A stretch of DNA of 64,000 bases from an uncultured Clostridia bacterium (GTDB lineage Bacteria > Bacillota > Clostridia > TANB77 > CAG-508): NCBI GenBank assembly GCA_947581805.1, contig CANPVM010000001.1, positions 249,712 through 313,711 of the forward strand. The letters run 5' to 3'. Under the pieces are notes generated by a model that saw nothing but the letters and a program-made list of their open reading frames with translations, ran no database searches and was not told where the DNA came from. A program made the translations under genes and the position numbers. How positions within the stretch are numbered: the first letter of the stretch is position 1; the number at the start of each line of letters is the position of its first letter. Below, one piece after another: positions 8,266 through 25,472 of this stretch.

Positions 8266-8451
8266 GTGATGAGTATGAAGGAGATGTACCAAAAATCACT
8301 ACAAATGATAAAAGATTTACAAAGGATTCCAACACAGGAAGAATGGAATAGTATAGCCAAAGAAAAGTGTTTAATGAGCTATACAACTTTGGAATATATA
8401 GAAAACAAAAGATTTCACACCTTGTGTAAAAAGTTAAGAAAAGCTAGCTAA
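8266..8451 (+). CDS. small hypothetical protein (61 aa)
   Basis: ORF preceded by RBS gaggtg; no recognisable domain. Confidence 0.3.
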   Translation: MMSMKEMYQKSLQMIKDLQRIPTQEEWNSIAKEKCLMSYTTLEYIENKRFHTLCKKLRKAS

Positions 8452-8736: not shown

Positions 8737-8812
<76 letters not shown>

Positions 8813-8821
8813 AATATTTAA

Positions 8822-8862
8822 AGCCTAGTAGATTACAAAAATCTACTAGGCTCTATTTTTTT
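8822..8862 (+). terminator. rho-independent terminator after tRNA (gcctagtagat/atctactaggc + T-run)
   Basis: 11-bp perfect inverted repeat followed by ttttttt. Confidence 0.8.
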
Positions 8863-8934
8863 AATGCAAAATATACTTTTCATATATACAGCTAAGTGAT
8901 ATAATAGTAAAAAAATGTAAAAAAAGAGGGAAAA

Positions 8935-10734
8935 ATGTCAGAAATCAAAGAAGAAATATTACAGCAATATGGTATCTATCAAAAAAGAAAATTAAAAGAA
9001 AATGAAAAGATGCAATTGCTAAAAATCAAACAAGAGATAGAAAAAATAATAAAAATACCAATAGAGAAATTATACTTAGCAGAAGAAGCGGCATGGGGAA
9101 AAGAGCCAGAGAAATCTGCTTATAGTATCTGTGTATTAGTAGATAAAAGGACCAAAGACTTAAGAGAAAAAATAGATTTACTAATTCCTTATGCAAAAAA
9201 TAAAAAAATAGATATTGCATTAAGAGCAATGTGCCAATTTGAAAAAAGAAAAATGATACCAACAGAAAAAGATTATTATATTCATCAATATGGTATTAAA
9301 GTATATGATAGTGGAAAAGAGCCAGAAATTAATGAAAGTTTAGGAGCTACGCAATACGGAAGATATATGGAATATCATAGGGAATTCAGAAACTTTCTTC
9401 ATACAAATGTAGACTATTGGATGAATGAAACTGTTAGAATATATACTTTAAAAATGGGATATGCACTTATTAGTCGAAATGCAGAATTAGAAAGAGATTG
9501 TAATTTTGCAAAATTAATAACAAAAGATAAAAAAATTATTAGCATGATAGACTCTTATTTAGAGCAAACTGAGCAGAAAGCAAAAGAAAAAATATTAGAT
9601 GAGTTTGAAGAATATGTAACTAGTTTAAAACAAGTAAAATTTTCAGCAAAATTAGAAGAAAAACCAACCATGAAGGTATACGAAAAATTATTAAAAAGAA
9701 AACAGAAGCAAGGAACATTAGATATAAAAACCCTAACAAAAGACGATTTATATACTATGTATATTATACAGGATATTGATACTAGCCTAATAGCAGAATT
9801 ATATGGAGTAGAAAATAAAAAAATAGCAGAGAAAAGAAATTCTTGGCAAATCAAGAGAAGAGAAGCGGCCTTTACCAATACAGATGAAATAATAAAGAAA
9901 ACAATAGAATCCGCAGAAATGCAAAGCTCTATATATGCTTATGCTTTACTAAAGAAAAGTGGAATTATGGGCTTCGAAAAATGTACATTACCAATTCTAA
10001 AATATATGCTAGATAATGAAGTTTATTTATTAAAAGAATTTTGGCAATTTACTAAAAATGAAAAAAATAAAGAAGAAAAATTAATTTTTGGAGACACAAA
10101 ATATTCCTATTGTCAAGCAAGTATGGCTGTAGAACTATTATTACAAAACAACTTAATAAAAGAGGTAGATTTTAAACAATATCAAATTACAAAAGAAGGG
10201 AAGGAGTTAGTTTGGTATTGCATACAAAATGATATAGAAGAGATTACTATTCCAATTATTAATAAAAAATTTAAAAATGTTCAATATTATGAATTATATT
10301 ACACAGAAGAGTATCCTACTGATATCGAAGAAGTTACATGGGAAAAATTGTACCATAAATGGAATGAATATTGTCATGAAAACTTCCCTGAATTATTAAG
10401 AGAAGAAAATTTACCAATTGAAAATGAAGTAAAAAATGAAGAAGAGATTGCATTAGTTTGGATGTACTTATTCTTTTCTAATTTAGAATGGAGAAATCTT
10501 TTTCCAAAGCAATGGGAAAAAACAATCTTTATAGGTATCAATGATATTTTAAATCCAATTCGCCAACAAATAAAAGAAAAGTCAATTTCAGTTGTTATGA
10601 AAGAGGATTTTCAATTAACTCAATTTTTAGATATTTCAAATGTAACAAAATATATAGAAATAGAAAAAGTAGAAGATATGGTAGAATATGCAGCAGTTTC
10701 CTGTGCGTATTTAATAAAAATAAGAGAAAGGTAA
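8935..10734 (+). CDS. hypothetical protein, island operon gene 1 (599 aa); central ~190-aa module paralogous to N-terminus of gene 2
   Basis: RBS agaggg; residues ~245-440 ('KVYEKLLKRKQKQGTLDIKTLTKDDLYTMYI...IAELYGVENKKIAEKRNSWQIK...LLKEFWQF...AVELLLQNNLIKEVDFKQYQITKEGKEL') align with residues 1-195 of the next ORF; HTH-like character. Confidence 0.6.
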   Translation: MSEIKEEILQQYGIYQKRKLKENEKMQLLKIKQEIEKIIKIPIEKLYLAEEAAWGKEPEKSAYSICVLVDKRTKDLREKIDLLIPYAKNKKIDIALRAMCQFEKRKMIPTEKDYYIHQYGIKVYDSGKEPEINESLGATQYGRYMEYHREFRNFLHTNVDYWMNETVRIYTLKMGYALISRNAELERDCNFAKLITKDKKIISMIDSYLEQTEQKAKEKILDEFEEYVTSLKQVKFSAKLEEKPTMKVYEKLLKRKQKQGTLDIKTLTKDDLYTMYIIQDIDTSLIAELYGVENKKIAEKRNSWQIKRREAAFTNTDEIIKKTIESAEMQSSIYAYALLKKSGIMGFEKCTLPILKYMLDNEVYLLKEFWQFTKNEKNKEEKLIFGDTKYSYCQASMAVELLLQNNLIKEVDFKQYQITKEGKELVWYCIQNDIEEITIPIINKKFKNVQYYELYYTEEYPTDIEEVTWEKLYHKWNEYCHENFPELLREENLPIENEVKNEEEIALVWMYLFFSNLEWRNLFPKQWEKTIFIGINDILNPIRQQIKEKSISVVMKEDFQLTQFLDISNVTKYIEIEKVEDMVEYAAVSCAYLIKIRER

Positions 10735-10737
10735 AAC

Positions 10738-12000
10738 ATGGAGATATATCAAAAATTATTAAAGAAAAAGCAAGCAGGTGAAAAAATAGAATTAAGTAAT
10801 TTAACAAAAGATGAGCTTTATTTTATTTATATAGAAGAAGGTCATATTGTTAAGGATATTGCAAATTTATTTAACACATCGCAAAACGAAATAAATAAGT
10901 TAAGAAATAAGTGGAATATAAAGGTAACCCAAGAATTCATGACAGATCGTGAAACAATGAAATATGTTTATGAAAAATTTGGAAGCGGTTATGAGTATGA
11001 TTATCATTTATATTTATTAAAAGAACATATGGGACTTCCTACATTCGAAGACTTATTTATTCCATCTTTAATGCTGTTAAAAGATGAAAAAGTTCATAAT
11101 ATAAAAGAATTTTGGCATTTGACAGATAAAAACTATAAAATAAGCGAAGCAGAATTACAATATTGTGTATCATATGAAAATCCAACGTTATTTTATAGAG
11201 CTGATTGGTGTTTAGAAGCTATGTTAAAAGCAAACTTAGTAGAAGAAATCGCCTTTCGAGAATATAAAATAACGAAGCAAGGAGAAAAATTTTTAGAAGA
11301 CTGTATTAAAGAAGAAGTCAATCAATTTGGCTTAGGATATTTATTAAAGAAGTGCTCTAATTCTAATTTATCTTTATCAAATAATGTAAAAGAAACACAA
11401 CAAAAAACAAAAAAGGAAGAAAGTATTGTAAGTTCTAAGGTAGAAGAAACAAAAGAGGAACAAGAAAAAACAATCAAAGAGCAAGTTTCTAACTTAAAAC
11501 AAATTGATTATGTAGAAAATATAACAAAGAAGAAATCTTCAAGTAAAAGTACAAATAAATCAAAAGCAGTAAAAACTAATTTTACAAAAATGAATGAAAT
11601 AAAAACAGACTTTGGAAAAAAATGTGAAAGAATTATTTACGAACATGAAAAAGAAAGACTAAGGCAAGAAGGACAAGCAGAAAAAGCAGAACAAGTAATT
11701 TGGGCTTCCGAAGAAAAAGGAGACGGATTAGGTTATGATATTGAATCCTTTAAAAAAATAAATGGCAAATATGAAAAAATATACATTGAAGTAAAAGGAA
11801 CCGATAAAGATTGTTCAGAACCATTTGATGTTAGTATTAATGAAGTGATGGTATCAGAACAATTAAAAAATTCTTATTATATATATCGTATTGCAAAAGC
11901 AAATACAAAGAAACCTATTTTTTATAAAGTAAAGGGAAGCATAGCAGAAAACTTTGATTTAACAGCAATTAAATTTAGAGCTTCTAGGAGGAGTAAATGA
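10738..12000 (+). CDS. DUF3883 (NO VEIN C-terminal-like, restriction-endonuclease-fold) domain protein with N-terminal HTH-like module
   Basis: 4-nt gap after gene 1. C-terminal 'GKKCERIIYEHEKERL...VIWASEEKGDGLGYDIESF...IYIEVKGTD...SINEVMVSEQLKNSYYIYRI' matches NOV_C/DUF3883 pattern (GE..E..L...V.WVS...GYDI.S...IEVK.T...S.NE...A...Y.IYRV); Lys/Ser-rich linker. Confidence 0.7.
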   Translation: MEIYQKLLKKKQAGEKIELSNLTKDELYFIYIEEGHIVKDIANLFNTSQNEINKLRNKWNIKVTQEFMTDRETMKYVYEKFGSGYEYDYHLYLLKEHMGLPTFEDLFIPSLMLLKDEKVHNIKEFWHLTDKNYKISEAELQYCVSYENPTLFYRADWCLEAMLKANLVEEIAFREYKITKQGEKFLEDCIKEEVNQFGLGYLLKKCSNSNLSLSNNVKETQQKTKKEESIVSSKVEETKEEQEKTIKEQVSNLKQIDYVENITKKKSSSKSTNKSKAVKTNFTKMNEIKTDFGKKCERIIYEHEKERLRQEGQAEKAEQVIWASEEKGDGLGYDIESFKKINGKYEKIYIEVKGTDKDCSEPFDVSINEVMVSEQLKNSYYIYRIAKANTKKPIFYKVKGSIAENFDLTAIKFRASRRSK

Positions 12001-13013
12001 AAAAATTTGAAAATCATTATCATGAACCATTAAATTATTTGAGAGAACAAAATATAGAATCTCCAACATGGTATGAAATTAGAGATAATTTATTAGAATG
12101 GTATATACAAGACTTTGCAGGAGACAGCATAGGAATGGATATGCTAGTAGAATATGTAAGAAAGCAAAAGAAAATAGAGAGCAATACCTTTTTTGAAAAT
12201 ATGGTAAATTCAGTATTATTCCCTAAACTTTCTAAAAAAGATAAAAAAGAAGTTTATCAAATAGCAAAAAATACTTTTATGGATGGACTATTTTATTTTG
12301 AAGAATCTTACCTATTAAATTTAGTAGAAAAAGAATCTTTAGAAAAATATATTGAAAATAATATATTAATACAAGACGAGGAAAAACTTAGATTTCAAAA
12401 TATATTACTTCAGTCTTATTTAGCTGCTTGTAAAATTTATGAAGAAAAAATAGAAATAAATGATTCTGTATTTCAAAAATGGTTAGACGAAGATGGATAT
12501 GAATATTTGAATCATCAAATTGAGATTTTTTATATATTTTCTATGATTCATTTGGAACTATTTAACCAGCAATATTTAAAACCAAAAATAGAAAAATTTT
12601 TATCAAAAATAGATACAAAAAACGATTTTACCATTGCACAATCAATCATAGATATGTATGAAATTGCAGAAGAGTTTGGAGAAGAATATCCAAGGCTTTT
12701 TCTTTCAACAGAGGAAGATTATTGCTTTATTAAATTTTTAGGGTTAGACATAGAAGGAGATATTATAGAACACGATTATGAGCCATATGAAAGTATGTTA
12801 AATATTAGATATACTGACGAAAATGGCATCATGAAAATTGATTATACGAAGATGAAAGAAGATAAATTTTTAATGAAATGGCTAGATGAAGATGGAACTA
12901 TAGAAAAGTTAGTAGAAGATTATAAAATTTTAAAGAGAATATTGAAAAAAATGCAAAAGGAATTAGATAAAGATTATTGTGATGATTGGGAGATAAAGGG
13001 ATTGGTTAGATAA
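11997..13013 (+). CDS. hypothetical protein, island operon gene 3 (338 aa)
   Basis: ATGA start/stop overlap with gene 2 indicates translational coupling; no recognisable motif. Confidence 0.55.
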   Translation: MKKFENHYHEPLNYLREQNIESPTWYEIRDNLLEWYIQDFAGDSIGMDMLVEYVRKQKKIESNTFFENMVNSVLFPKLSKKDKKEVYQIAKNTFMDGLFYFEESYLLNLVEKESLEKYIENNILIQDEEKLRFQNILLQSYLAACKIYEEKIEINDSVFQKWLDEDGYEYLNHQIEIFYIFSMIHLELFNQQYLKPKIEKFLSKIDTKNDFTIAQSIIDMYEIAEEFGEEYPRLFLSTEEDYCFIKFLGLDIEGDIIEHDYEPYESMLNIRYTDENGIMKIDYTKMKEDKFLMKWLDEDGTIEKLVEDYKILKRILKKMQKELDKDYCDDWEIKGLVR

Positions 13014-13164: not shown

Positions 13165-13482
13165 ATGGAAGAATTAATGAAAGAAATAAAACAATTTAAC
13201 GAAGAAAGAGATTGGGATAAGTTTCACTCACCAGAAAATTTAGCTAAATCAATATCAATAGAGGCAGGAGAACTTTTAGAATGTTTTCAATGGGATAGTA
13301 TAAATTATAATAAAGATGAAGTTTGTGAAGAACTTGCAGATGTATTTACATATTGTATTCAAATGGCCATGAAATTGGATGTAAATCCAAAAGAAATTAT
13401 TTTAAATAAACTAGAAAAAACAAAGAAAAAGTATCCAGTAGAAAAAGCAAAAGGAGTAAGTACGAAATATAATAAATTATAA
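13165..13482 (+). CDS. MazG-like nucleotide pyrophosphohydrolase (small all-alpha NTP-PPase, YpjD-like)
   Basis: 'EERDWDKFHSPENLAKSISIEAGELLECFQW' and 'CEELADVFTYCIQMA' give the ExxE...ExxD metal-binding pattern of the MazG/HisE-like fold; RBS taggag. Confidence 0.65.
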   Translation: MEELMKEIKQFNEERDWDKFHSPENLAKSISIEAGELLECFQWDSINYNKDEVCEELADVFTYCIQMAMKLDVNPKEIILNKLEKTKKKYPVEKAKGVSTKYNKL

Positions 13483-13501: not shown

Positions 13502-14293
13502 ATGTTAAATGAATTTAATATAGATATTTTTGATTTTATTTTTTCATCAAATATAGAATTAAAAAATGGAGAAAAAAATTCAAATGACTTATGTCAAGAA
13601 CTTGATAAAAAAATAAGTGAAATATGTAAACAGTATGATTTTTGGAATGAATACAAATATTATTTTAATGATAACTGTGTTATTGATGCAAGTACTTTAA
13701 GTGAGTATCAATATATTTATAATGGCTTTCCAAAATTAAAAATTGCAACTAAAAAAGAATATTTCGAATATAAAAAGAATCAAATAAAAGAAAGTATAAA
13801 TAATAATGGCGAATTTGAATGCGAAGAATTTAAAAAGATTACTAAAGGTATATGCAACGAAGGCAAAAAAGAAATCTTAGATTATTGTGAAGTTGTAGGG
13901 ATAATAAAATATAAAGGAAAAGTCTTTATAGCTGCAGGTGATAGTCCTGTATATGCTATAAGATATGATAATATATCGGCTATATTATATAAAGAAGATG
14001 AAGTAAAAAGTTTAAGGGCTGAAAATATGATAATAGTTCAGGGAAATGGTAATTACATTAGTGAAATTAAACAAAATAGTAGTTCATATGATGAAGAATT
14101 TTTTGAAACCGTTATGAGTAAATTGCAATTATTAATACAAGAAGGAGTTACAAAAGATAAAGTAGAATTAATTGAAGAAGCCTGTAAAGAGAAAAATAAA
14201 AATAAAGTGGTAGGTTTTTTAAAAGATGTTGCTTCAGGGACAATAAGTAGTTTGATAGCAACAGGAATATTATGTAAATTTGGAATAAAATAG
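13502..14293 (+). CDS. hypothetical protein (263 aa)
   Basis: ORF with RBS agggag; Cys-containing, no recognisable motif. Confidence 0.45.
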   Translation: MLNEFNIDIFDFIFSSNIELKNGEKNSNDLCQELDKKISEICKQYDFWNEYKYYFNDNCVIDASTLSEYQYIYNGFPKLKIATKKEYFEYKKNQIKESINNNGEFECEEFKKITKGICNEGKKEILDYCEVVGIIKYKGKVFIAAGDSPVYAIRYDNISAILYKEDEVKSLRAENMIIVQGNGNYISEIKQNSSSYDEEFFETVMSKLQLLIQEGVTKDKVELIEEACKEKNKNKVVGFLKDVASGTISSLIATGILCKFGIK

Positions 14294-14320
14294 TTTTAAA
14301 ATAATATGGGGGCAATTATT

Positions 14321-16276
14321 ATGATAGTATATGACAATGTGAAAAGCGGATTTATCGAAGATTTAAGAAAAGATATATTGATTACAAAAATTGAAGAAAA
14401 TTTTAAACAAAAAATAGGTGGAGTTAAAACAGGGGAAAAAACAGCTTGGGAAAATTCTTTAAATAGAGTTGTTAAAATAATAAATAATAAAGATATTCCA
14501 GAAGATGCAGGAATTGCTGTGGAATATAAAGTACCAGAGACAGATCGTAGAATTGATTTTATGATTTCAGGATATAGCGAAGAAGGAAAAGGTGTAATAA
14601 TAATCATTGAACTAAAGCAATGGAGTAAGGTTGATGCAGTGCCTAATAGTTTGTTAGTAAGAGCTTTGGTTAGTAAAAATAATGTTAAAGAAACATCACA
14701 TCCTTCAAGACAAGCATTAAACTACGCTGGCTATTTAAGTAATTTAATTGAGCCAGTCATAAAAAATAAAATCATATTACATCCCTGCTCATATTTACAT
14801 AATTATACTATAAAAGAAAATGATCCATTACTGGATGATAAATTTGATGCACTATTTAAACAATCACCTGTTTTTACAATGGATAATGAAGATGAACTTA
14901 GAGATTTCATCAAAAAATATATTAAAAAGGGAGATAGAGAAAAAGTTTTATTTGAACTTGACAATGGAAATATAGTACCCTCAATAAGATTGCAAGATGA
15001 TATTGCAAATATGATAGAGGGGAAAAAGCAATTTTATTTATTAGAGACACAACAAGATGTATATGAAAAGGCATTAAATATGGCAGAAGAGACATTTAAA
15101 ACTAATGAAAAACATGTATTAATAGTAAAGGGAGGACCAGGTACTGGAAAATCAGCTGTAGCAATACAATTATTTGCAGAATTATACCAAAGAAAAATAA
15201 TTGCACATTATACAACAATGAATGGGGCTCCAAGAAATGTATATTTCAAAGAATTAAAAAATACAGAAGATCAAGAATATATAAGAAATTTATTTACTGG
15301 AGCATATTCATATGATGTTGCAAAAACTAATGAGATTCCTGTTATCATAGTAGATGAAGCACACAGATTAAAACAACAAACATATGTAGGAAGAGTTAGA
15401 GGAAATAATCAAATTAGAGAAATAATAAATGCAGCTAATTTTTCTATATTTTTCATTGATGAAGACCAAATGGTTACTGATAATGATATAGGAACTATAG
15501 AGGAAATTAAAAGATGTTGTGACATTAATGGAGTAAAAACTGTTAATATAGAACAAATGGAATTAGAGAGCCAATTTAGATGTAAAGGATCTACTAGCTA
15601 CATTGCATGGTTGGATAATGTTTTACAAATAAGAAAGACTGCAAACAATATATTAGATACAAAGGAATATGAGTTTAAAGTAGTAGACACACCTGATGAA
15701 TTAGATAAACTAATAACTGAAAGAAATGGTGAAAATAAATCTAGACTTGTTGCGGGATATTATAAAGAATGGATTTCTAGAAACGATTCTACAAAATTTG
15801 ACTTTGAATTATCAGAAACATTTAGAAAAAAGTGGAATTTAGCTAAAAGAAAGACTTGGGCAATTGATAAAGATTCTATAAATGAGATTGGATGTATACA
15901 TACCTGTCAAGGCTTGGAGTTTGATTATATAGGGGTTATAATTGGAACAGATTTAAGGTATAAAAATGGTAAAGTTATAACATATTTAACCCAAAATGCA
16001 GATTCAGATAAAACATCATTAGTACATACAAAGGCTTTGTACAAAAAAAATCCAGAAAAAGCAAAAAAAATAGCAGACAGAATTATAAAAAATACATATA
16101 AGGTACTAATGACACGAGGATTAAGAGGATGTTACATTTATTGTGAAGACAAGCCTTTAGCAGAATATATTAAAGGGAAAATAAAATCAATTGATGATTA
16201 CCAATATAAAGTTGAAGAAGAACAAGTAGAATACTTACAGGTAGCTGAAGAAAGTGAAGAATATAAATATGAATAA
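14321..16276 (+). CDS. DUF2075-family protein: N-terminal PD-(D/E)xK nuclease-like domain + SF1-type P-loop ATPase/helicase-like domain
   Basis: 'RRIDFMISGY...VIIIIELKQW' gives D...E-L-K; Walker A 'VKGGPGTGKSAV'; Walker B 'VIIVDEAHRL'; UvrD-C-like 'CIHTCQGLEFDYIGVIIG'. Start ambiguous: ATG 14306 or ATG 14321 after GGGGG. Confidence 0.75.
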   Translation: MIVYDNVKSGFIEDLRKDILITKIEENFKQKIGGVKTGEKTAWENSLNRVVKIINNKDIPEDAGIAVEYKVPETDRRIDFMISGYSEEGKGVIIIIELKQWSKVDAVPNSLLVRALVSKNNVKETSHPSRQALNYAGYLSNLIEPVIKNKIILHPCSYLHNYTIKENDPLLDDKFDALFKQSPVFTMDNEDELRDFIKKYIKKGDREKVLFELDNGNIVPSIRLQDDIANMIEGKKQFYLLETQQDVYEKALNMAEETFKTNEKHVLIVKGGPGTGKSAVAIQLFAELYQRKIIAHYTTMNGAPRNVYFKELKNTEDQEYIRNLFTGAYSYDVAKTNEIPVIIVDEAHRLKQQTYVGRVRGNNQIREIINAANFSIFFIDEDQMVTDNDIGTIEEIKRCCDINGVKTVNIEQMELESQFRCKGSTSYIAWLDNVLQIRKTANNILDTKEYEFKVVDTPDELDKLITERNGENKSRLVAGYYKEWISRNDSTKFDFELSETFRKKWNLAKRKTWAIDKDSINEIGCIHTCQGLEFDYIGVIIGTDLRYKNGKVITYLTQNADSDKTSLVHTKALYKKNPEKAKKIADRIIKNTYKVLMTRGLRGCYIYCEDKPLAEYIKGKIKSIDDYQYKVEEEQVEYLQVAEESEEYKYE

Positions 16277-17268: not shown

Positions 17269-17625
17269 ATGGATACTATAGGAGGTCAAATACAAAGTCA
17301 GAATTTACTGAAAATTAAAAAAATTGTAGATAAAGATAATAATGGAGATAAATTCATTATTATCAGGACTGAAAAAAATAAAGAGTTTATGAGGGAGTAT
17401 AACTTAAATCGAGAAGACATTAAAGATATTATAAGAAGACTCTCAGTAGATGATTGCTTCGCTGGTCCAGAGAAAGACAGAAATCCACAATATGAAGGGT
17501 GGATATTTAAATTTAATCCTTTATTCGAAGACACTAAGCTTTATATTAAGATTAGAGTTGAGAGTACGGAAAAATCAGTTTGTTTGTCAGTACATGAATT
17601 TGGTAAATATGATGAGGTGAATTAA
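17269..17625 (+). CDS. MqsR-like toxin (putative RNase toxin of a type II TA pair)
   Basis: 118 aa; 'DIKDIIRRLSVDDCFAGPEKDRN...GWIFKF...LYIKIRV...VCLSVHEF' parallels MqsR 'CNVIIGLSESDFYKSM...WQDVYRP...VYLKITV...LIVSFKEK'; 1-nt gap to Zn-finger/HTH partner, same order as mqsRA. Confidence 0.55.
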   Translation: MDTIGGQIQSQNLLKIKKIVDKDNNGDKFIIIRTEKNKEFMREYNLNREDIKDIIRRLSVDDCFAGPEKDRNPQYEGWIFKFNPLFEDTKLYIKIRVESTEKSVCLSVHEFGKYDEVN

Positions 17626-17626
17626 A

Positions 17627-18643
17627 ATGAGAGAATATTGTCCATATTGTAAAAAAGAAGTAGATTATAAAATAGAAAAAAGGGACGTAAAAGAATTTAG
17701 AGGAATAGAAATAAATACCTATGAAAATGTAGCTGTATGCAAAGAATGCCATCAAGATTTATATGTAAATGAAATTGAAGAAAAGAATAATGAAAGAATA
17801 TATGAACTCTATAGAAAAAAAGCAAACATAATAAAACCACAAGATATAGTTAATTTAAGAAAAAAATATGATATATCACAAAGAGAATTAACGGCTATTC
17901 TTGGATTTGGAAAAATGACTATTAATAGATATGAAAGAGGCGGAGTTCCAACAAAATCTCAAAGTGATTATATAAGATTATTGATTGATAATGATAATAA
18001 GTTTGTAGAAAAAGTAAAAGAAGCATACAAAAATGGTAGTATTAATGATAAAACATACGAAAAAATAGTGGCTCAAGAATTAAATATTAGTGTTAATAAA
18101 GAAGAAATTCAAGATAATATAAGAAGATATTTAAAATATGCATTAAGTAGGAAACCTGATATATATAACGGTTATAAATCATTAGATATAGAAAAAGTTG
18201 AAAATATTATATCTTATATTGCTAGCAAAGTAAAAAATCTAACTATTACTAGTTTAAATAAATATTTATGGTTTATAGATATATTATCTTTTAATCAAAG
18301 AAGTGTATCTATTACTGGTTTAACATATCAAAATCAAAAATTTGGACCTACCATAATAGATAAGAAATATGATGAAATATCATTATTAGATGATAAATAT
18401 ATTAGAGAAGATATTGAAACTGAAAATGGTAATACAACAAAAATTATAAGTAATGGTAATTATAATTTAGACAAAATAAGTGATACTGAAAAAGAAATAA
18501 TTGATATAATAATAAAAATACTAAAGAATAAAACTGTGACAGAGATATCTGAATTGTCACATAGAGAGGAAGGATGGAAAAAAACTAAAAGATTTGAAAA
18601 GATACCATTTGATTATTCTATGAATTTAAATATAATTAAATAA
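17627..18643 (+). CDS. MqsA-like antitoxin: N-terminal CxxC...CxxC zinc finger + XRE-type HTH, fused to C-terminal Panacea (DUF4065) domain
   Basis: 'CPYCKK...CKEC' zinc ribbon; HTH 'ISQRELTAILGFGKMTINRYERG'; C-terminal 'LNKYLWFIDILSFNQRSVSITGLTYQNQKFGPTI' fits DUF4065 core (L.KL.Y.D......ITG..Y.....GP). Confidence 0.65.
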   Translation: MREYCPYCKKEVDYKIEKRDVKEFRGIEINTYENVAVCKECHQDLYVNEIEEKNNERIYELYRKKANIIKPQDIVNLRKKYDISQRELTAILGFGKMTINRYERGGVPTKSQSDYIRLLIDNDNKFVEKVKEAYKNGSINDKTYEKIVAQELNISVNKEEIQDNIRRYLKYALSRKPDIYNGYKSLDIEKVENIISYIASKVKNLTITSLNKYLWFIDILSFNQRSVSITGLTYQNQKFGPTIIDKKYDEISLLDDKYIREDIETENGNTTKIISNGNYNLDKISDTEKEIIDIIIKILKNKTVTEISELSHREEGWKKTKRFEKIPFDYSMNLNIIK

Positions 18644-19892: not shown

Positions 19893-19910
19893 GCTCATAA
19901 CCCGAAGGTC
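19893..19910 (+). repeat. attR-like 18-bp direct repeat of tRNA-Met anticodon arm (identical to 8767-8784)
   Basis: Exact 18/18 'gctcataacccgaaggtc' in non-coding DNA 11.1 kb downstream of the tRNA. Confidence 0.7.
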
Positions 19911-20205
19911 ATCAGTTTAAGATTTATCCTCGTAACTAGCAAAATAAAAGGTTATATTAATTAACTAAAACCAAATTTTATAATTTATTCCGAAACTACC
20001 ATTATATCCTGAAGGTATAGAAATCTTGTTTTATCTTCAATAATTCTTCCATATTCAATTAATTTAGTATCATATATACACATAATAAATACAATGTATT
20101 TTTAATTAATATTTTCAAAATATAACAAGAATTGACAAGAAAACACAAATTTATATTTTAATAATCAAAAATATATGATAGAATATAACAAAGGAGGAGA
20201 TAGAA

Positions 20206-20961
20206 ATGGTAACACACATTCAAAAAGGGCACCCAGAAGAAGTAAAAAACAAAAGAACAATGAGAATAAAAGAAGCAATCAGCTTCTCAACTGGAACAAA
20301 AGAAAAGCCAGATATGCATATTATTGGAGAAGTAAATGGTAATAAAATATTTTTCTTAAAGCCAGGGAAAGAATTCTTTAGAGAGAAAAAAAGAAATATA
20401 AATGACATGACTCCTTGTGTAGGAAATTTATATGAAAAATACTCTTTTGGAGATATATGGAAAGATATGTTAAACCTTTCTGTCCACATAAATGAAGAAA
20501 CGTATAAACAATTAAATGTCTTAATATATAGATTAGCATATTTAATGGATTGTACAATAATAGATAAAAAAGTAAGATACCAACCAGAAGGTGAGGTTCT
20601 TGAAACAATAAATAAAATACAAAATGAAATTGATACTGTTGGATATCAATTTAAAGTATTAGAATTTTTGAACTTTATAGATATTTTAAGTTGGAATGAA
20701 GATGTAAAATACCAACCAGATTGCCTATTTGAAAAAGAAAGAGAAAAGGTAGGAAGAATCAACACCATCTTAAGTTTAATTTCAATACCATTAATATTTA
20801 AACAATTTGTTGATGAAATTATCAAAAACAAGCAATCTTTAGAAAAATTAAATTATTCATTATTAGTAGATGTTGCGCAAAACTTTTCTAGAACTAGAGG
20901 AGTCCATCCAATATCAAATAAGCAACTAATTCAATATTTAAGTCCATATTTAACTGAATAA
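20206..20961 (+). CDS. hypothetical protein, candidate type II restriction endonuclease partner of adjacent methyltransferase
   Basis: 251 aa, RBS aaggagg, directly upstream and co-directional with the C5-MTase; no recognisable motif, so assignment is positional only. Confidence 0.3.
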   Translation: MVTHIQKGHPEEVKNKRTMRIKEAISFSTGTKEKPDMHIIGEVNGNKIFFLKPGKEFFREKKRNINDMTPCVGNLYEKYSFGDIWKDMLNLSVHINEETYKQLNVLIYRLAYLMDCTIIDKKVRYQPEGEVLETINKIQNEIDTVGYQFKVLEFLNFIDILSWNEDVKYQPDCLFEKEREKVGRINTILSLISIPLIFKQFVDEIIKNKQSLEKLNYSLLVDVAQNFSRTRGVHPISNKQLIQYLSPYLTE

Positions 20962-21060
20962 AAGAAGAAAACTATTGACAACAAACAAATGTTTATATAT
21001 AATAAAAACAAAAGAATAATATAAAATAATAACAAGAAAACAAAAAGGAGTACTACATAA

Positions 21061-22260
21061 ATGATAGAAAAAACAGTTTGTGAATTATTTGCAGGAGTTG
21101 GAGGATTTAGATTAGGACTAGAAAAAGAAAATCCAGAATGGAATACCGTATGGGCCAATCAATGGGAACCAGGAAAGAAAAACCAATATGCCTTCGATTG
21201 CTATGTATCACATTTTGGTGAAAGCGAAAACTATGTTAATGAAGATATTGCAAATGTAGATAAAAATATTATTCCAGAACACAATCTATTAGTAGGCGGA
21301 TTTCCTTGCCAAGACTATTCAGTAGCAAGAACAGGGGCAGAAGGAATCGATGGAAAAAAGGGAGTACTATGGTGGCAAATTAGAGATATATTAGAAAAAA
21401 AGCAACCTAAATTTGTACTATTAGAAAATGTTGATAGACTATTGAAATCACCAACAAAACAGAGAGGAAGAGACTTTGGTGTTATATTAGCATGCTTTAA
21501 TGATTTAGGATATAGTGTGGAATGGAGAGTAATCAATGCAGCAGATTATGGATTTGCCCAAAAAAGAAGAAGAACATTCATATATGCAACGAAAAATAGC
21601 ACTACTTATTACAATTCAATAAAAAATAAAAGCTTTGAAGAAATTATCCATAAAGATGGTTTTTTTGCCAAAGAATTTAAAATACAAGAGAATACAAAAG
21701 GAATTGCGCAAGAATTCAAATATAAAGATATATATGAAGTATCAGACAATTTTAAAATGGCATTTGAAAACGCAGGAATTATGAAAGATAATCAGATATA
21801 TATAGAAAAAGTAGAACCTAAATATATTGAGCCAACAAAATTAAGAGAAGTACTGGAAGAAGATGCAGATAAAAAATATTATGTAGTAGGAAATATAGAA
21901 AAATGGAAAGAATTAAAAGGTCCTAAAAAAATTGATAGAGTAAGCAAAACAGGATTTAAATATGTCTTTTCAGAAGGTGGCATGTTATTTCCAGATGCAT
22001 TAGATAGGCCAGCTAGAACTATGCTAACAAGTGAATCTAGCGTTAATAGAAGCTCTCATATAATAGAAGATCCAAAGAAAAAAGAATTAAGAATATTAAC
22101 TCCAATAGAAGCAGAAAGGATAAATGGATTTGATGACAACTGGACAAATACAGGAATGCCAGAAAAATTTAGATATTTCTGTATGGGAAATGCCTTAGTA
22201 GTTGGATTAATAGAAAAAATGGCAAATAGATTAGATGATATATTTGCACAAGAAAATTAA
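21061..22260 (+). CDS. DNA (cytosine-5)-methyltransferase (Dcm/type II m5C MTase)
   Basis: Motif I 'FAGVGGFRLGL', motif IV 'GGFPCQDYS', motif VI 'LLENVDRLL', motif VIII 'FIYAT' region, C-terminal 'GNALVVGL'; RBS aaaggag. Confidence 0.9.
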   Translation: MIEKTVCELFAGVGGFRLGLEKENPEWNTVWANQWEPGKKNQYAFDCYVSHFGESENYVNEDIANVDKNIIPEHNLLVGGFPCQDYSVARTGAEGIDGKKGVLWWQIRDILEKKQPKFVLLENVDRLLKSPTKQRGRDFGVILACFNDLGYSVEWRVINAADYGFAQKRRRTFIYATKNSTTYYNSIKNKSFEEIIHKDGFFAKEFKIQENTKGIAQEFKYKDIYEVSDNFKMAFENAGIMKDNQIYIEKVEPKYIEPTKLREVLEEDADKKYYVVGNIEKWKELKGPKKIDRVSKTGFKYVFSEGGMLFPDALDRPARTMLTSESSVNRSSHIIEDPKKKELRILTPIEAERINGFDDNWTNTGMPEKFRYFCMGNALVVGLIEKMANRLDDIFAQEN

Positions 22261-23930: not shown

Positions 23931-25472
23931 ATGTTATCAATTGTAAAAAGTATGTCACTAAGTGGTCTAGATGGCTATCTTGTTTCTGTGCAAGTAGATG
24001 TTTCCGCAGGTATTCCTGCATGGGAAATCGTGCGGACTTCCTGATACTAGTGTCAGAGAATCCAAAGAAAGAGTAAAAACAGCTATTAAAAATTCTGGCT
24101 ATGAATTATTAAGTAGAAAAATTGTAGTGAATTTAGCTCCAGCCGATACCAAAAAAGAAGGTTCTTTCTTTGATTTACCAATTGCCATTGGAATCTTAAC
24201 CTGTCTTGGAGAAATTAGGCAAAGTAAACTAGAAAACATAGCGTTTCTAGGCGAGTTATCTTTAGACGGAAGTTTAAATCAAATCAATGGAATTTTACCT
24301 ATGTGTATTGAAGCAAAAAAGTTAGGAATTGAAAAAATGGTAGTGCCAATACAAAATGCCAAAGAAGCGGCAGTGGTAAAGGGTATTCAAATTATTGGCG
24401 CAAATACTCTGAGCCAAGCAGTAGAATATTTAAATGAAAGAGAAGATATTAAGCCATATGAAATAAATATGGAAGAATTATACCAAGAGGCAGAAGAGGA
24501 GAAATTTGACTTTTGCGAAGTAAAAGGTCAAGAAAATATTAAAAGGGCAATTGAAGTAGCAGCAGCTGGTGGTCACAATATTCTACTAATTGGAAATCCA
24601 CGGCTCACGGAAAAACCATGATGGCAAGAAGAATTCCATCTATTTTACCAGATTTAAGTTTTGAAGAAGCCTTAGAAACAACAAAAATACATAGTGTGGC
24701 AGGTCTTTTAAGCAAAGAGATCCCATTTATTATGGCAAGGCCATTTCGTGCGCCACACCATACTATTTCTACCACCTCTTTAGTAGGTGGAGGCAGAATT
24801 CCAAAACCAGGAGAAATTAGTTTAGCTCATCATGGAGTTTTATTTTTAGATGAACTGCCAGAATTCCAAAAAAGTACTTTAGAAGTAATGCGTGGACCAT
24901 TAGAAGATAAATTAGTAACAATAGCAAGAGTAAATAGTACACTAACATACCCTTGTAATTTTATGCTAGTTGCTTCTATGAATCCGTGCCCTTGTGGCTT
25001 TTATGGCTCCAAGCAAAAAGAATGTACTTGTCAGCCACAAGCTATTAATAAATATTTAGCTAAAATTAGTGGTCCATTATTAGATAGAATAGACATTCAA
25101 ATTGAAGTATCTTCAGTAAGTTATCATCATTTAAAAAAAGATACACCAGAAGAAACTTCAATGCAAATAAAGAAAAGAGTAAATGAGGCAAGAAAAATAC
25201 AATTAGAAAGGTATAAAGAAGAAGGTATTTATTCTAATAGCGAATTAACACCTAAATTACAAGAAAAATACTGTGCTTTAGGAAAAGAAGAAAGCATGCT
25301 TTTAAAGCAAGCATTTGATAGTTTAAATTTAAGTGCAAGAGCTTATGGCAGAATTCTAAAAGTAGCAAGGACTATTGCAGATTTAGACAGAAAAGAAAAT
25401 ATAGAAGTTTCCCATATTGCAGAAGCTATTCAATATAGAAGTTTAGATAAAAAATATAGGAAAGTTATATAA
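23931..25472 (+). pseudogene. comM: comM/yifB (Mg-chelatase-like AAA+ competence protein) split by three single-C insertions (24033, 24601, 24608)
   Basis: Frame 1 'MLSIVKSMSLSGLDGYLVSVQVDVSAGIPAWEIV' then stop. Deleting c24033 restores '...EIVGLPDTSVRESKERV'. Walker A reads 'GNPRLTEKP*' but is 'GNPGSGKTMMARR' after removing c24601 and c24608. C-terminal half 24618-25472 carries 'GVLFLDELPEF' sensor region. Confidence 0.8.

Follow-up and report, generated by a model that had tools for sequence, protein, structure and literature searches.

We describe a three-gene operon in a 64,000-nucleotide (nt) stretch of DNA from an uncultured Clostridia bacterium (GenBank assembly GCA_947581805.1, contig CANPVM010000001.1, positions 249,712 to 313,711; hereafter the window). 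On balance, its sequence suggests that the operon is probably a defence nuclease cassette, borne on a genomic island, whose products work as a three-part unit against phages or other mobile DNA. The three open reading frames (ORFs) lie on the forward (+) strand and encode P1 (8935..10734; 599 amino acids, aa), P2 (10738..12000; 420 aa) and P3 (11997..13013; 338 aa). P2 joins a DNA-reading module to a NOV_C/DUF3883 nuclease, P1 carries a diverged copy of the same module, and P3 is homologous to one region of nSTAND3 proteins. The trio would belong among restriction-like PD-(D/E)xK defence nucleases with accessory subunits, and appears new in its anatomy. We found no description of it, or of its fused relatives, in the libraries and literature searched: queries for ‘NOV_C’ and ‘Mrr_N’ returned only papers on Vibrio ‘NOVC’, and no mention of PDC-S36, the closest library model, was found.

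An earlier reading of the same DNA from its letters (the original prediction) had proposed an anti-phage or anti-plasmid system located in an island. The coupled operon, the duplicated DNA-binding module and the DUF3883 nuclease on which it drew all hold, while the identity of the module and the statement that no known family is matched are corrected below. The prediction also missed that the trio appears to be a split version of a single-chain protein. Three coupled ORFs of 599, 420 and 338 aa at 8935-13013 were recovered by our ORF calls. Since the P1/P2 junction reads 5’-TAA-AAC-ATG-3’ (P1 stop, AAC, P2 start), the gap there is 3 nt and not 4 nt as first given; the ATGA overlap was seen at the P2/P3 junction, with an AGGAGG ribosome-binding site ahead of it.

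The P2 nuclease and the duplicated DNA-binding module

The C-terminal part of P2 (residues 291-420; 11608..12000, +) is a NOV_C/DUF3883 PD-(D/E)xK nuclease domain (Pfam NOV_C, E 2e-18). Residues 297-395 score 66.6 bits against a Pfam gathering cut-off of 22.1, and the catalytic residues D334, E351 and K353, the latter two within the IEVK motif, are intact and invariant (100%) across 68 aligned NOV_C homologs; E297 and E304 are likewise invariant. By profile score and by catalytic residues, P2 is thus a member of the NOV_C/DUF3883 family (PF13020), as the IEVK signature had led the original prediction to propose. DUF3883 was placed in the PD-(D/E)XK superfamily by Steczkiewicz et al. (PMC3424549), and it is the catalytic domain of YenY4I, a modification-dependent endonuclease that cuts DNA with modified cytosine (PMC6765204).

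Among the PADLOC defence models, PDC-S36 matched P2 residues 205-416 (E 7.1e-35; profile positions 76-278 of 280), and PD-T4-1 (2e-14) and TmtA (1.7e-14) also matched; all three matches span the nuclease part alone. The view that no named family applies therefore fails for the nuclease domain and stands for the trio as a whole. P2 shares its PD-(D/E)xK motif with the known and candidate nucleases of this group (PDC-S36, PD-T4-1, TmtA, YenY4I and McaZI). PDC-S36 is nevertheless a single gene of about 280 profile positions, the first 75 of which are not matched by P2, whereas P2 has a different N-terminal module of 205 aa and two conserved partner genes. Unlike PD-T4-1/Tiamat, in which the nuclease domain alone matches (E ~1e-14), P1, P2 and P3 have no match to a nucleoside triphosphatase (NTPase) family and no Walker A motif. 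As with McaZI (PMC6765204), a DUF2075 NTPase is encoded nearby in the window, but other loci with the trio (L031 and L033, in our numbering of the compared loci) are without DUF2075.

The N-terminal part of P2 (residues 1-205; 10738..11352, +) is one of two copies of a module in which a small helical part, resembling a helix-turn-helix (HTH), is followed by an Mrr_N-type winged helix (Pfam Mrr_N at residues 103-187, E 1.1e-9; 38.8 bits against a cut-off of 29.5). Between module and nuclease lies a low-complexity linker (residues 206-290; 11353..11607, +) rich in K, S and E (18, 13 and 11 of 85 residues, respectively). The other copy of the module occupies residues 246-445 of P1 (9670..10269, +). 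The two are 31% identical over 206 aa (BLASTP E 3e-24), and the paralogy is therefore real, in agreement with the original prediction of paralogous regions at about residues 245-440 of P1 and 1-195 of P2. That prediction had described a sigma-70 region 4 or winged-helix module; the winged helix is confirmed by Mrr_N, and the module is not sigma-70 region 4. The module of P2 is nearest to that of a second lineage of fused proteins (P0073 and P0074), which is 36-38% identical to the P2 copy versus 29-33% to the P1 copy. This makes the cassette a mosaic of diverged paralogs and not the product of a simple, recent tandem duplication.

Fused relatives and the domains of P1 and P3

Relatives of P1 were few: a search of 5.8 billion proteins returned only 40 clusters, most of them proteins of 650-740 aa with a fused NOV_C domain. 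The fused proteins have the layout P1 N-domain, module, linker and NOV_C (alignment A1). One of them, P0012, is 70% identical to P2 across NOV_C and 55-57% identical to P1 across the N-domain and module, and it matches PDC-S36 at 1.8e-35. A standalone protein consisting of the module plus NOV_C also exists (P0072). These alignments indicate that the trio is a split derivative of a single-chain protein, in which P1 is the nuclease-less paralog: it keeps the nucleotidyltransferase-fold domain described below together with the module, and its C-terminal domain is found only where P3 is present. A 621-aa protein seen in more than 40 contigs, P0026 (L007 7001-8866), breaks off within NOV_C, short of the ExK motif, with a 59-aa ORF after it, and probably represents a decayed copy of the fused gene.

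Five lineages (36-63% identity) share the three-gene order, which bears out the co-occurrence in other genomes that the original prediction had offered as a check. The first comprises the window, L001, L014, L031 and L032, with 87-100% identity to the P1 of the window and proteins of 599, 420-421 and 338 aa. P1 identity to the window falls to about 61% in the second (L033-35; 598, 418 and 335 aa), about 47% in the third (L002-5 and L016; 602, 407 and 338 aa), about 40% in the fourth (L012-13; 583, 358 and 274 aa) and 41% (E 5e-100) in the fifth (L029; 627, 354 and 293 aa). The P1-P2 and P2-P3 spacings in these lineages, in the same order, are 3/-4, 3/-4, 3/-14, 1/0 and 23/33 nt. A hidden Markov model of P3 found a match in every complete split locus and none in more than 12 fused loci. 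Divergence across lineages is fastest, and runs in parallel, in the P1 C-domain (21-61% identity) and in P3 (22-63%); it is slower in the P1 N-domain (37-62%), the module (46-67%) and P2 (36-57%). From this parallel divergence we infer that the P1 C-domain may be the docking site for P3. All 15 loci found in genomes come from metagenome-assembled genomes of uncultured gut Clostridia. The four loci from metagenomes, also of gut Clostridia, are all fused and were the only ones detected there with the P1 profile; the P3 profile gave no match in the metagenomes.

The N- and C-terminal parts of P1 had no significant family match in Pfam, NCBIfam, PHROGs or PADLOC. For the N-domain (residues 1-245; 8935..9669, +), a profile search of the PDB also found nothing, and none of the Pfam nucleotidyltransferase families (e.g., NTP_transf_2) matched any of ten diverse N-domains at E<=10. 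The AlphaFold2 model of P1 is confident, with a predicted local distance difference test score (pLDDT) of 88 and a predicted template modelling score (pTM) of 0.80. Foldseek aligned residues ~1-250 of this model with the aminoglycoside nucleotidyltransferases AAD(9), ANT(4’) and AadA and with the MNT antitoxins MntA (6m6u), 7ae9 and 8xeo, at probabilities of 0.9-1.0 and with weak E-values, from 7.5e-3. According to the model, the N-domain has an alpha/beta nucleotidyltransferase fold of the MNT/ANT type within the Pol-beta superfamily, together with a helical subdomain.

The canonical nucleotidyltransferase motif, hG[GS]...[DE]h[DE]...[DE], is not kept in this domain. With motif positions assigned by eye, by secondary-structure register, the G of hG[GS] (position 50) occurs in just 10/31 sequences of alignment A1; the acid positions of strand 2 (64 and 66) are S/T/A and C, with [ST]-I-C at the DxD site; and position 93, the third acidic one, is variable. 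A 12-residue loop of the window P1 (AWGKEPEKSAYS), located at the site expected to hold the nucleotide- and metal-binding motifs of a nucleotidyltransferase, is wholly missing from the L029 homolog (L029 2562-4445). In these features, and in having neither a sequence-profile match nor a HEPN partner, the N-domain differs from known MNT/ANT nucleotidyltransferases (MNT-HEPN, ANT(4’), AAD(9) and AadA). Other residues are invariant or nearly so (W54, G55, D70, R72, E103, R105, K106, E111, Y114, D125, E134, Y141, Y170 and K173), and we read the domain as a putative pseudo-enzyme with a conserved binding or interface site.

The helical C-terminal domain of P1 (residues 446-599; 10270..10734, +) occurs in split loci only. 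Homology to the fused proteins stops near residue 475, and residues 476-599 form a separate helical domain, which stands in place of the nuclease domain of the fused relatives and is shared by the five trio lineages (21-61% identity). That it might be a degenerate NOV_C domain or a relative of P3 and STAND proteins was rejected, with hhalign probabilities below 1%.

P3 (11997..13013, +; 338 aa) is mostly helical and returned nothing significant from Pfam, NCBIfam, PHROGs, PADLOC or the PDB sequences. It has just 13 close clusters, and a profile search of all 1.84 billion representative proteins gave only 14 matches. The distant ones include short stand-alone proteins, which proved to be the third genes of the distant trios in L012 and L029, and two longer proteins, P0059 (1182 aa) and P0060 (771 aa), that carry an Mrr_cat nuclease, an nSTAND3 NTPase and a P3-like C-terminal region (hmmsearch E 6e-8 and 3e-7, library-wide). 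hhalign supported the relationship between P3 and the C-terminal region of the nSTAND3 proteins with probabilities of 96.8 (E 3e-10) and 95.6. P0060 matches the PADLOC candidate PDC-S73 at 5e-85 and Avs2 weakly. In L036-38, a 750-aa nSTAND3 gene runs at its end into a P3-like gene of 409 aa, with which it overlaps. Because it is homologous to the C-terminal region of P0059 and P0060, P3 appears to be a free-standing protein related to the sensor side, outside the NTPase, of STAND-type defence candidates, and hence a putative sensor or adaptor. Many STAND proteins act by abortive infection. The original prediction had found nothing recognisable in P3 or in either end of P1, which holds as far as the sequence libraries are concerned; beyond them, the ANT/MNT fold of the P1 N-domain and the nSTAND3/PDC-S73 homology of P3 supersede it.

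The trio and the Avs-like nSTAND3/PDC-S73 proteins are alike in more than the alignment of P3 with their C-terminal region. Both are paired with a restriction-type nuclease, and in related Clostridia they share a hotspot downstream of spo0A. They differ in that P1, P2 and P3 lack a P-loop NTPase, P3 is free-standing, and the partner nuclease is NOV_C and not Mrr_cat. The site downstream of spo0A (L006, L007-L010, L018, L019 and L036-L038) holds one of three cargoes: a fused P1-NOV_C gene, its truncated form, or an nSTAND3 gene with a P3-like gene. This pattern is that of a defence hotspot whose cargo can be exchanged.

Candidate functions of the trio

The defence reading, which we favour, can be put as a sequence of steps. 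The ancestor would have been a single-chain enzyme made of a dead nucleotidyltransferase-like domain, an HTH/winged-helix DNA reader and a NOV_C PD-(D/E)xK nuclease. In the split form, the three proteins would assemble, P1 with P2 through their paralogous modules and P3 with the C-domain of P1. P2 would be the sole DNA cutter, and the pseudo-enzyme domain of P1 together with P3 would set when, or on what DNA, it cuts. The cue sensed by P1 and P3 could be a ligand, a DNA modification or a phage protein, and the outcome would be cleavage of the invading DNA. A more specific version, which we put forward tentatively, is that the trio could be an undescribed three-protein immune system, in which a dead nucleotidyltransferase domain that senses a ligand or a modification and an NTPase-free sensor borrowed from STAND proteins, acting in trans, license the NOV_C nuclease through hetero-oligomers of two diverged DNA-reading modules. 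If true, this would be a natural case in which the sensor, adaptor and effector of a single-chain immune nuclease have become separate subunits.

Several observations weigh against the defence reading or limit it. The family is very rare, with 15 loci among 185,579 species genomes plus four in the JGI metagenome collection, and the statistics are therefore limited. Neither P1 nor P3 is covered by a PADLOC model, and both PDC-S36 and PDC-S73 have only candidate status. The contacts among P1, P2 and P3 are proposed from co-occurrence and co-divergence. The polar cluster of the P1 N-domain (D70, R72, E103, R105, E111, D125 and E134) could be a non-canonical active site and not a sensor pocket. 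The AlphaFold2 model of P3 is unreliable (pLDDT 59), and its Foldseek search gave no match below E 0.8; the NLRP matches listed at the top were not significant and were not used as evidence. Between the two copies of tRNA-Met that bound the island in the window, there is no integrase ORF.

The strongest of the rival explanations, though a rather unlikely one, is that the trio is a toxin-antitoxin or abortive infection system. P2 would then be a toxic nuclease; the nuclease-less P1, recalling MNT antitoxins, would poison P2 oligomers or mask DNA binding; and P3 would sense infection and free P2 to degrade both host and phage DNA. The resemblance of the P1 N-domain to MntA (6m6u), 7ae9 and 8xeo fits this proposal, as do the presence in P1 of the DNA-binding module of P2 without the nuclease, the kinship of P3 with STAND proteins and PDC-S73, and the tight coupling of the genes. 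However, the canonical nucleotidyltransferase residues needed for AMPylation of the MNT type are missing and there is no HEPN partner. The fused relatives, moreover, hold the N-domain and the nuclease in one chain, and the N-domain is therefore not a separable antitoxin in those proteins.

We consider it improbable that P2 alone is a plain type IV restriction enzyme, reading modified DNA through Mrr_N and cutting it, with P1 and P3 as dispensable passengers or decaying duplicates. P2 does resemble Mrr-type type IV enzymes in its order of an Mrr_N winged helix at the N-terminus and a PD-(D/E)xK nuclease at the C-terminus, and in its island setting beside restriction-modification (RM) genes. Other NOV_C homologs bear different DNA-reading N-domains, e.g., MrcB_N and RE_AlwI, the standalone P0072 has the required layout, and cleavage of DNA with modified cytosine is reported for DUF3883 enzymes such as YenY4I (PMC6765204). 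Against this, the catalytic domain of P2 is NOV_C and not Mrr_cat: there was no Pfam match to Mrr_cat (PF04471), and the PADLOC model mREase_IV reached only E 0.0084. An additional HTH-like segment precedes the winged helix, and the system comprises three genes or, in the fused form, an added 245-aa nucleotidyltransferase-fold domain. P1 and P3 remain intact, coupled and in the same order in five lineages down to 36-47% identity, which argues against their being passengers or pseudogenes, and the absence of P3 from the fused loci points to a functional link between P3 and the split form.

Other roles can be discounted further. A module for island maintenance, homing or addiction, or a set of DNA-binding regulators with no part in defence, is very improbable: the cassette lies in a tRNA-bounded island, has two HTH/winged-helix modules, and belongs to a family whose genes adjoin tRNA-Met in several loci, but no integrase, transposase or relaxase is consistently found alongside (window, L002, L031 and L033 neighbourhoods), searches of the phage, plasmid and IMG/VR collections yielded no relatives, the neighbours are mainly defence genes, and the nuclease motif is strictly conserved. 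The original prediction had named membership of a housekeeping pathway as the outcome that would count against it; profile searches placed no protein of the trio in such a pathway.

If the trio is protective, as we favour, it would represent a new defence cassette specific to gut Clostridia, a group with a poorly sampled immune repertoire. One-piece and three-piece natural designs of the same nuclease exist, and their comparison could show how regulation and sensing are divided among subunits. The role of a dead nucleotidyltransferase fold in immunity, and that of a STAND-type C-terminal domain without its NTPase, become testable questions. Should P2 read a DNA modification, it might also provide a new modification-dependent restriction reagent.

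The island and its neighbourhood

The window is AT-rich (~27% GC). Directly upstream of the operon lies a tRNA-Met gene (CAT anticodon; 8737..8812, +), identified by ARAGORN and scoring 63.8 bits with the Rfam tRNA model; no other RNA elements were found with Rfam. This gene is the left boundary of the island and its probable integration site. A repeat search with fuzzy matching found a degenerate direct copy of its 3’ half (8767-8810) at 19893..19936 (+; 35/44 nt), which is the right boundary and a signature of a tRNA-integrated island. The tRNA and the remnant enclose ~11.1 kb in the window, and family genes in L020-L025 likewise lie next to copies or remnants of tRNA-Met. In L032-L035, four independent assemblies break ~175 nt upstream of the P1 start, where the window has the tRNA-Met, which fits repeated tRNA sequence ending the contigs.

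A consensus scan placed a terminator-like hairpin (8822..8852, +; a 13-bp stem followed by a T-run) 3’ of the tRNA, where it could part the tRNA transcript from the operon. A promoter-like site, TTTTCA-17-TATAAT with TG (8877..8905, +; 10/12 matches, a consensus match only), sits 30 nt 5’ of the P1 start. The 151-nt spacer between P3 and the next gene has no terminator-like site in the same scan and holds a promoter-like match of its own. A small upstream ORF (8266-8451) was considered as a fourth conserved component and rejected, because it has no relationship to the 59-aa ORF that precedes the trio in L002.

The genes that follow the trio in the window encode a MazG-like protein, a 263-aa protein, a DUF2075/SLFN-g3 helicase and an MqsR / MqsA-SocA pair, and the DUF2075, MazG-like and toxin-antitoxin neighbours named in the original prediction are thus all present. 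Across the trio loci, the neighbours range over RM of types I, III-like and IV, CBASS remnants and toxin-antitoxin genes. The flanking genes are type I HsdM/S/R in L031, which has the same ComEA-tRNA flank as the window; an Eco57I-like methylase with a ResIII helicase, T5orf172 and IS200 in L033; an AspBHI_N-Mrr_cat type IV enzyme in L002; and Prok-JAB and Cap15, as CBASS remnants, in L029. The 103 ORFs around the fused-family genes, taken together with four ORFs 3’ of the L014 trio, gave matches to PADLOC models, namely those of type I and II RM, Lamassu LmuB, MADS, Hachiman HamB, AbiO, Nhi, PDC-S18 and PDC-S46. A phage or plasmid origin of the trio was rejected, its relatives being absent from the phage, plasmid and IMG/VR collections.

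MazG-like and DUF2075 genes are frequent neighbours of the trio. Their being obligatory partners was rejected: they follow the trio in the window, L012 and L014, but type I RM takes their place in L031, as do the Eco57I-like methylase and ResIII helicase in L033. The 105-aa MazG-like protein (window 13165-13482; L002 4555-4884; L012 4637-4954; L014 14231-14548) is 85-97% identical across loci whose trio proteins share 40-47%, and a DUF2075 helicase, differing in type between loci, usually comes next. The MazG-like protein may form a conserved module of its own or anchor the hotspot. In the region 13502-16276 of the window, the 263-aa protein has a weak PADLOC match to AbiTi (5e-4), and the gene 3’ of it encodes the 656-aa DUF2075/SLFN-g3 helicase, which matches PDC-S41 (7e-14); its N-terminal 265 aa are uncharacterised. 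L002 holds a free-standing 206-aa ORF related to this N-terminal region. At 17269-18643 of the window, an MqsR-like toxin gene precedes the gene of an antitoxin in which MqsA (HTH) and a SocA/Panacea domain are joined.

At 20206-22260, shortly beyond the tRNA-bounded island, a 251-aa ORF without a family match adjoins a C5 cytosine methyltransferase (PADLOC MTase_II, 1.6e-169). The pair is probably a type II RM system, and would be relevant if P2 reads methylated DNA. Further downstream, at 23998-25472, the Mg-chelatase-like competence gene comM is split into ORFs of 207 aa and 284 aa with an ATGA overlap. Its Pfam profile runs on across the split, from position 31 to 37, and the split could reflect a frameshift, a pseudogene or a sequencing error.

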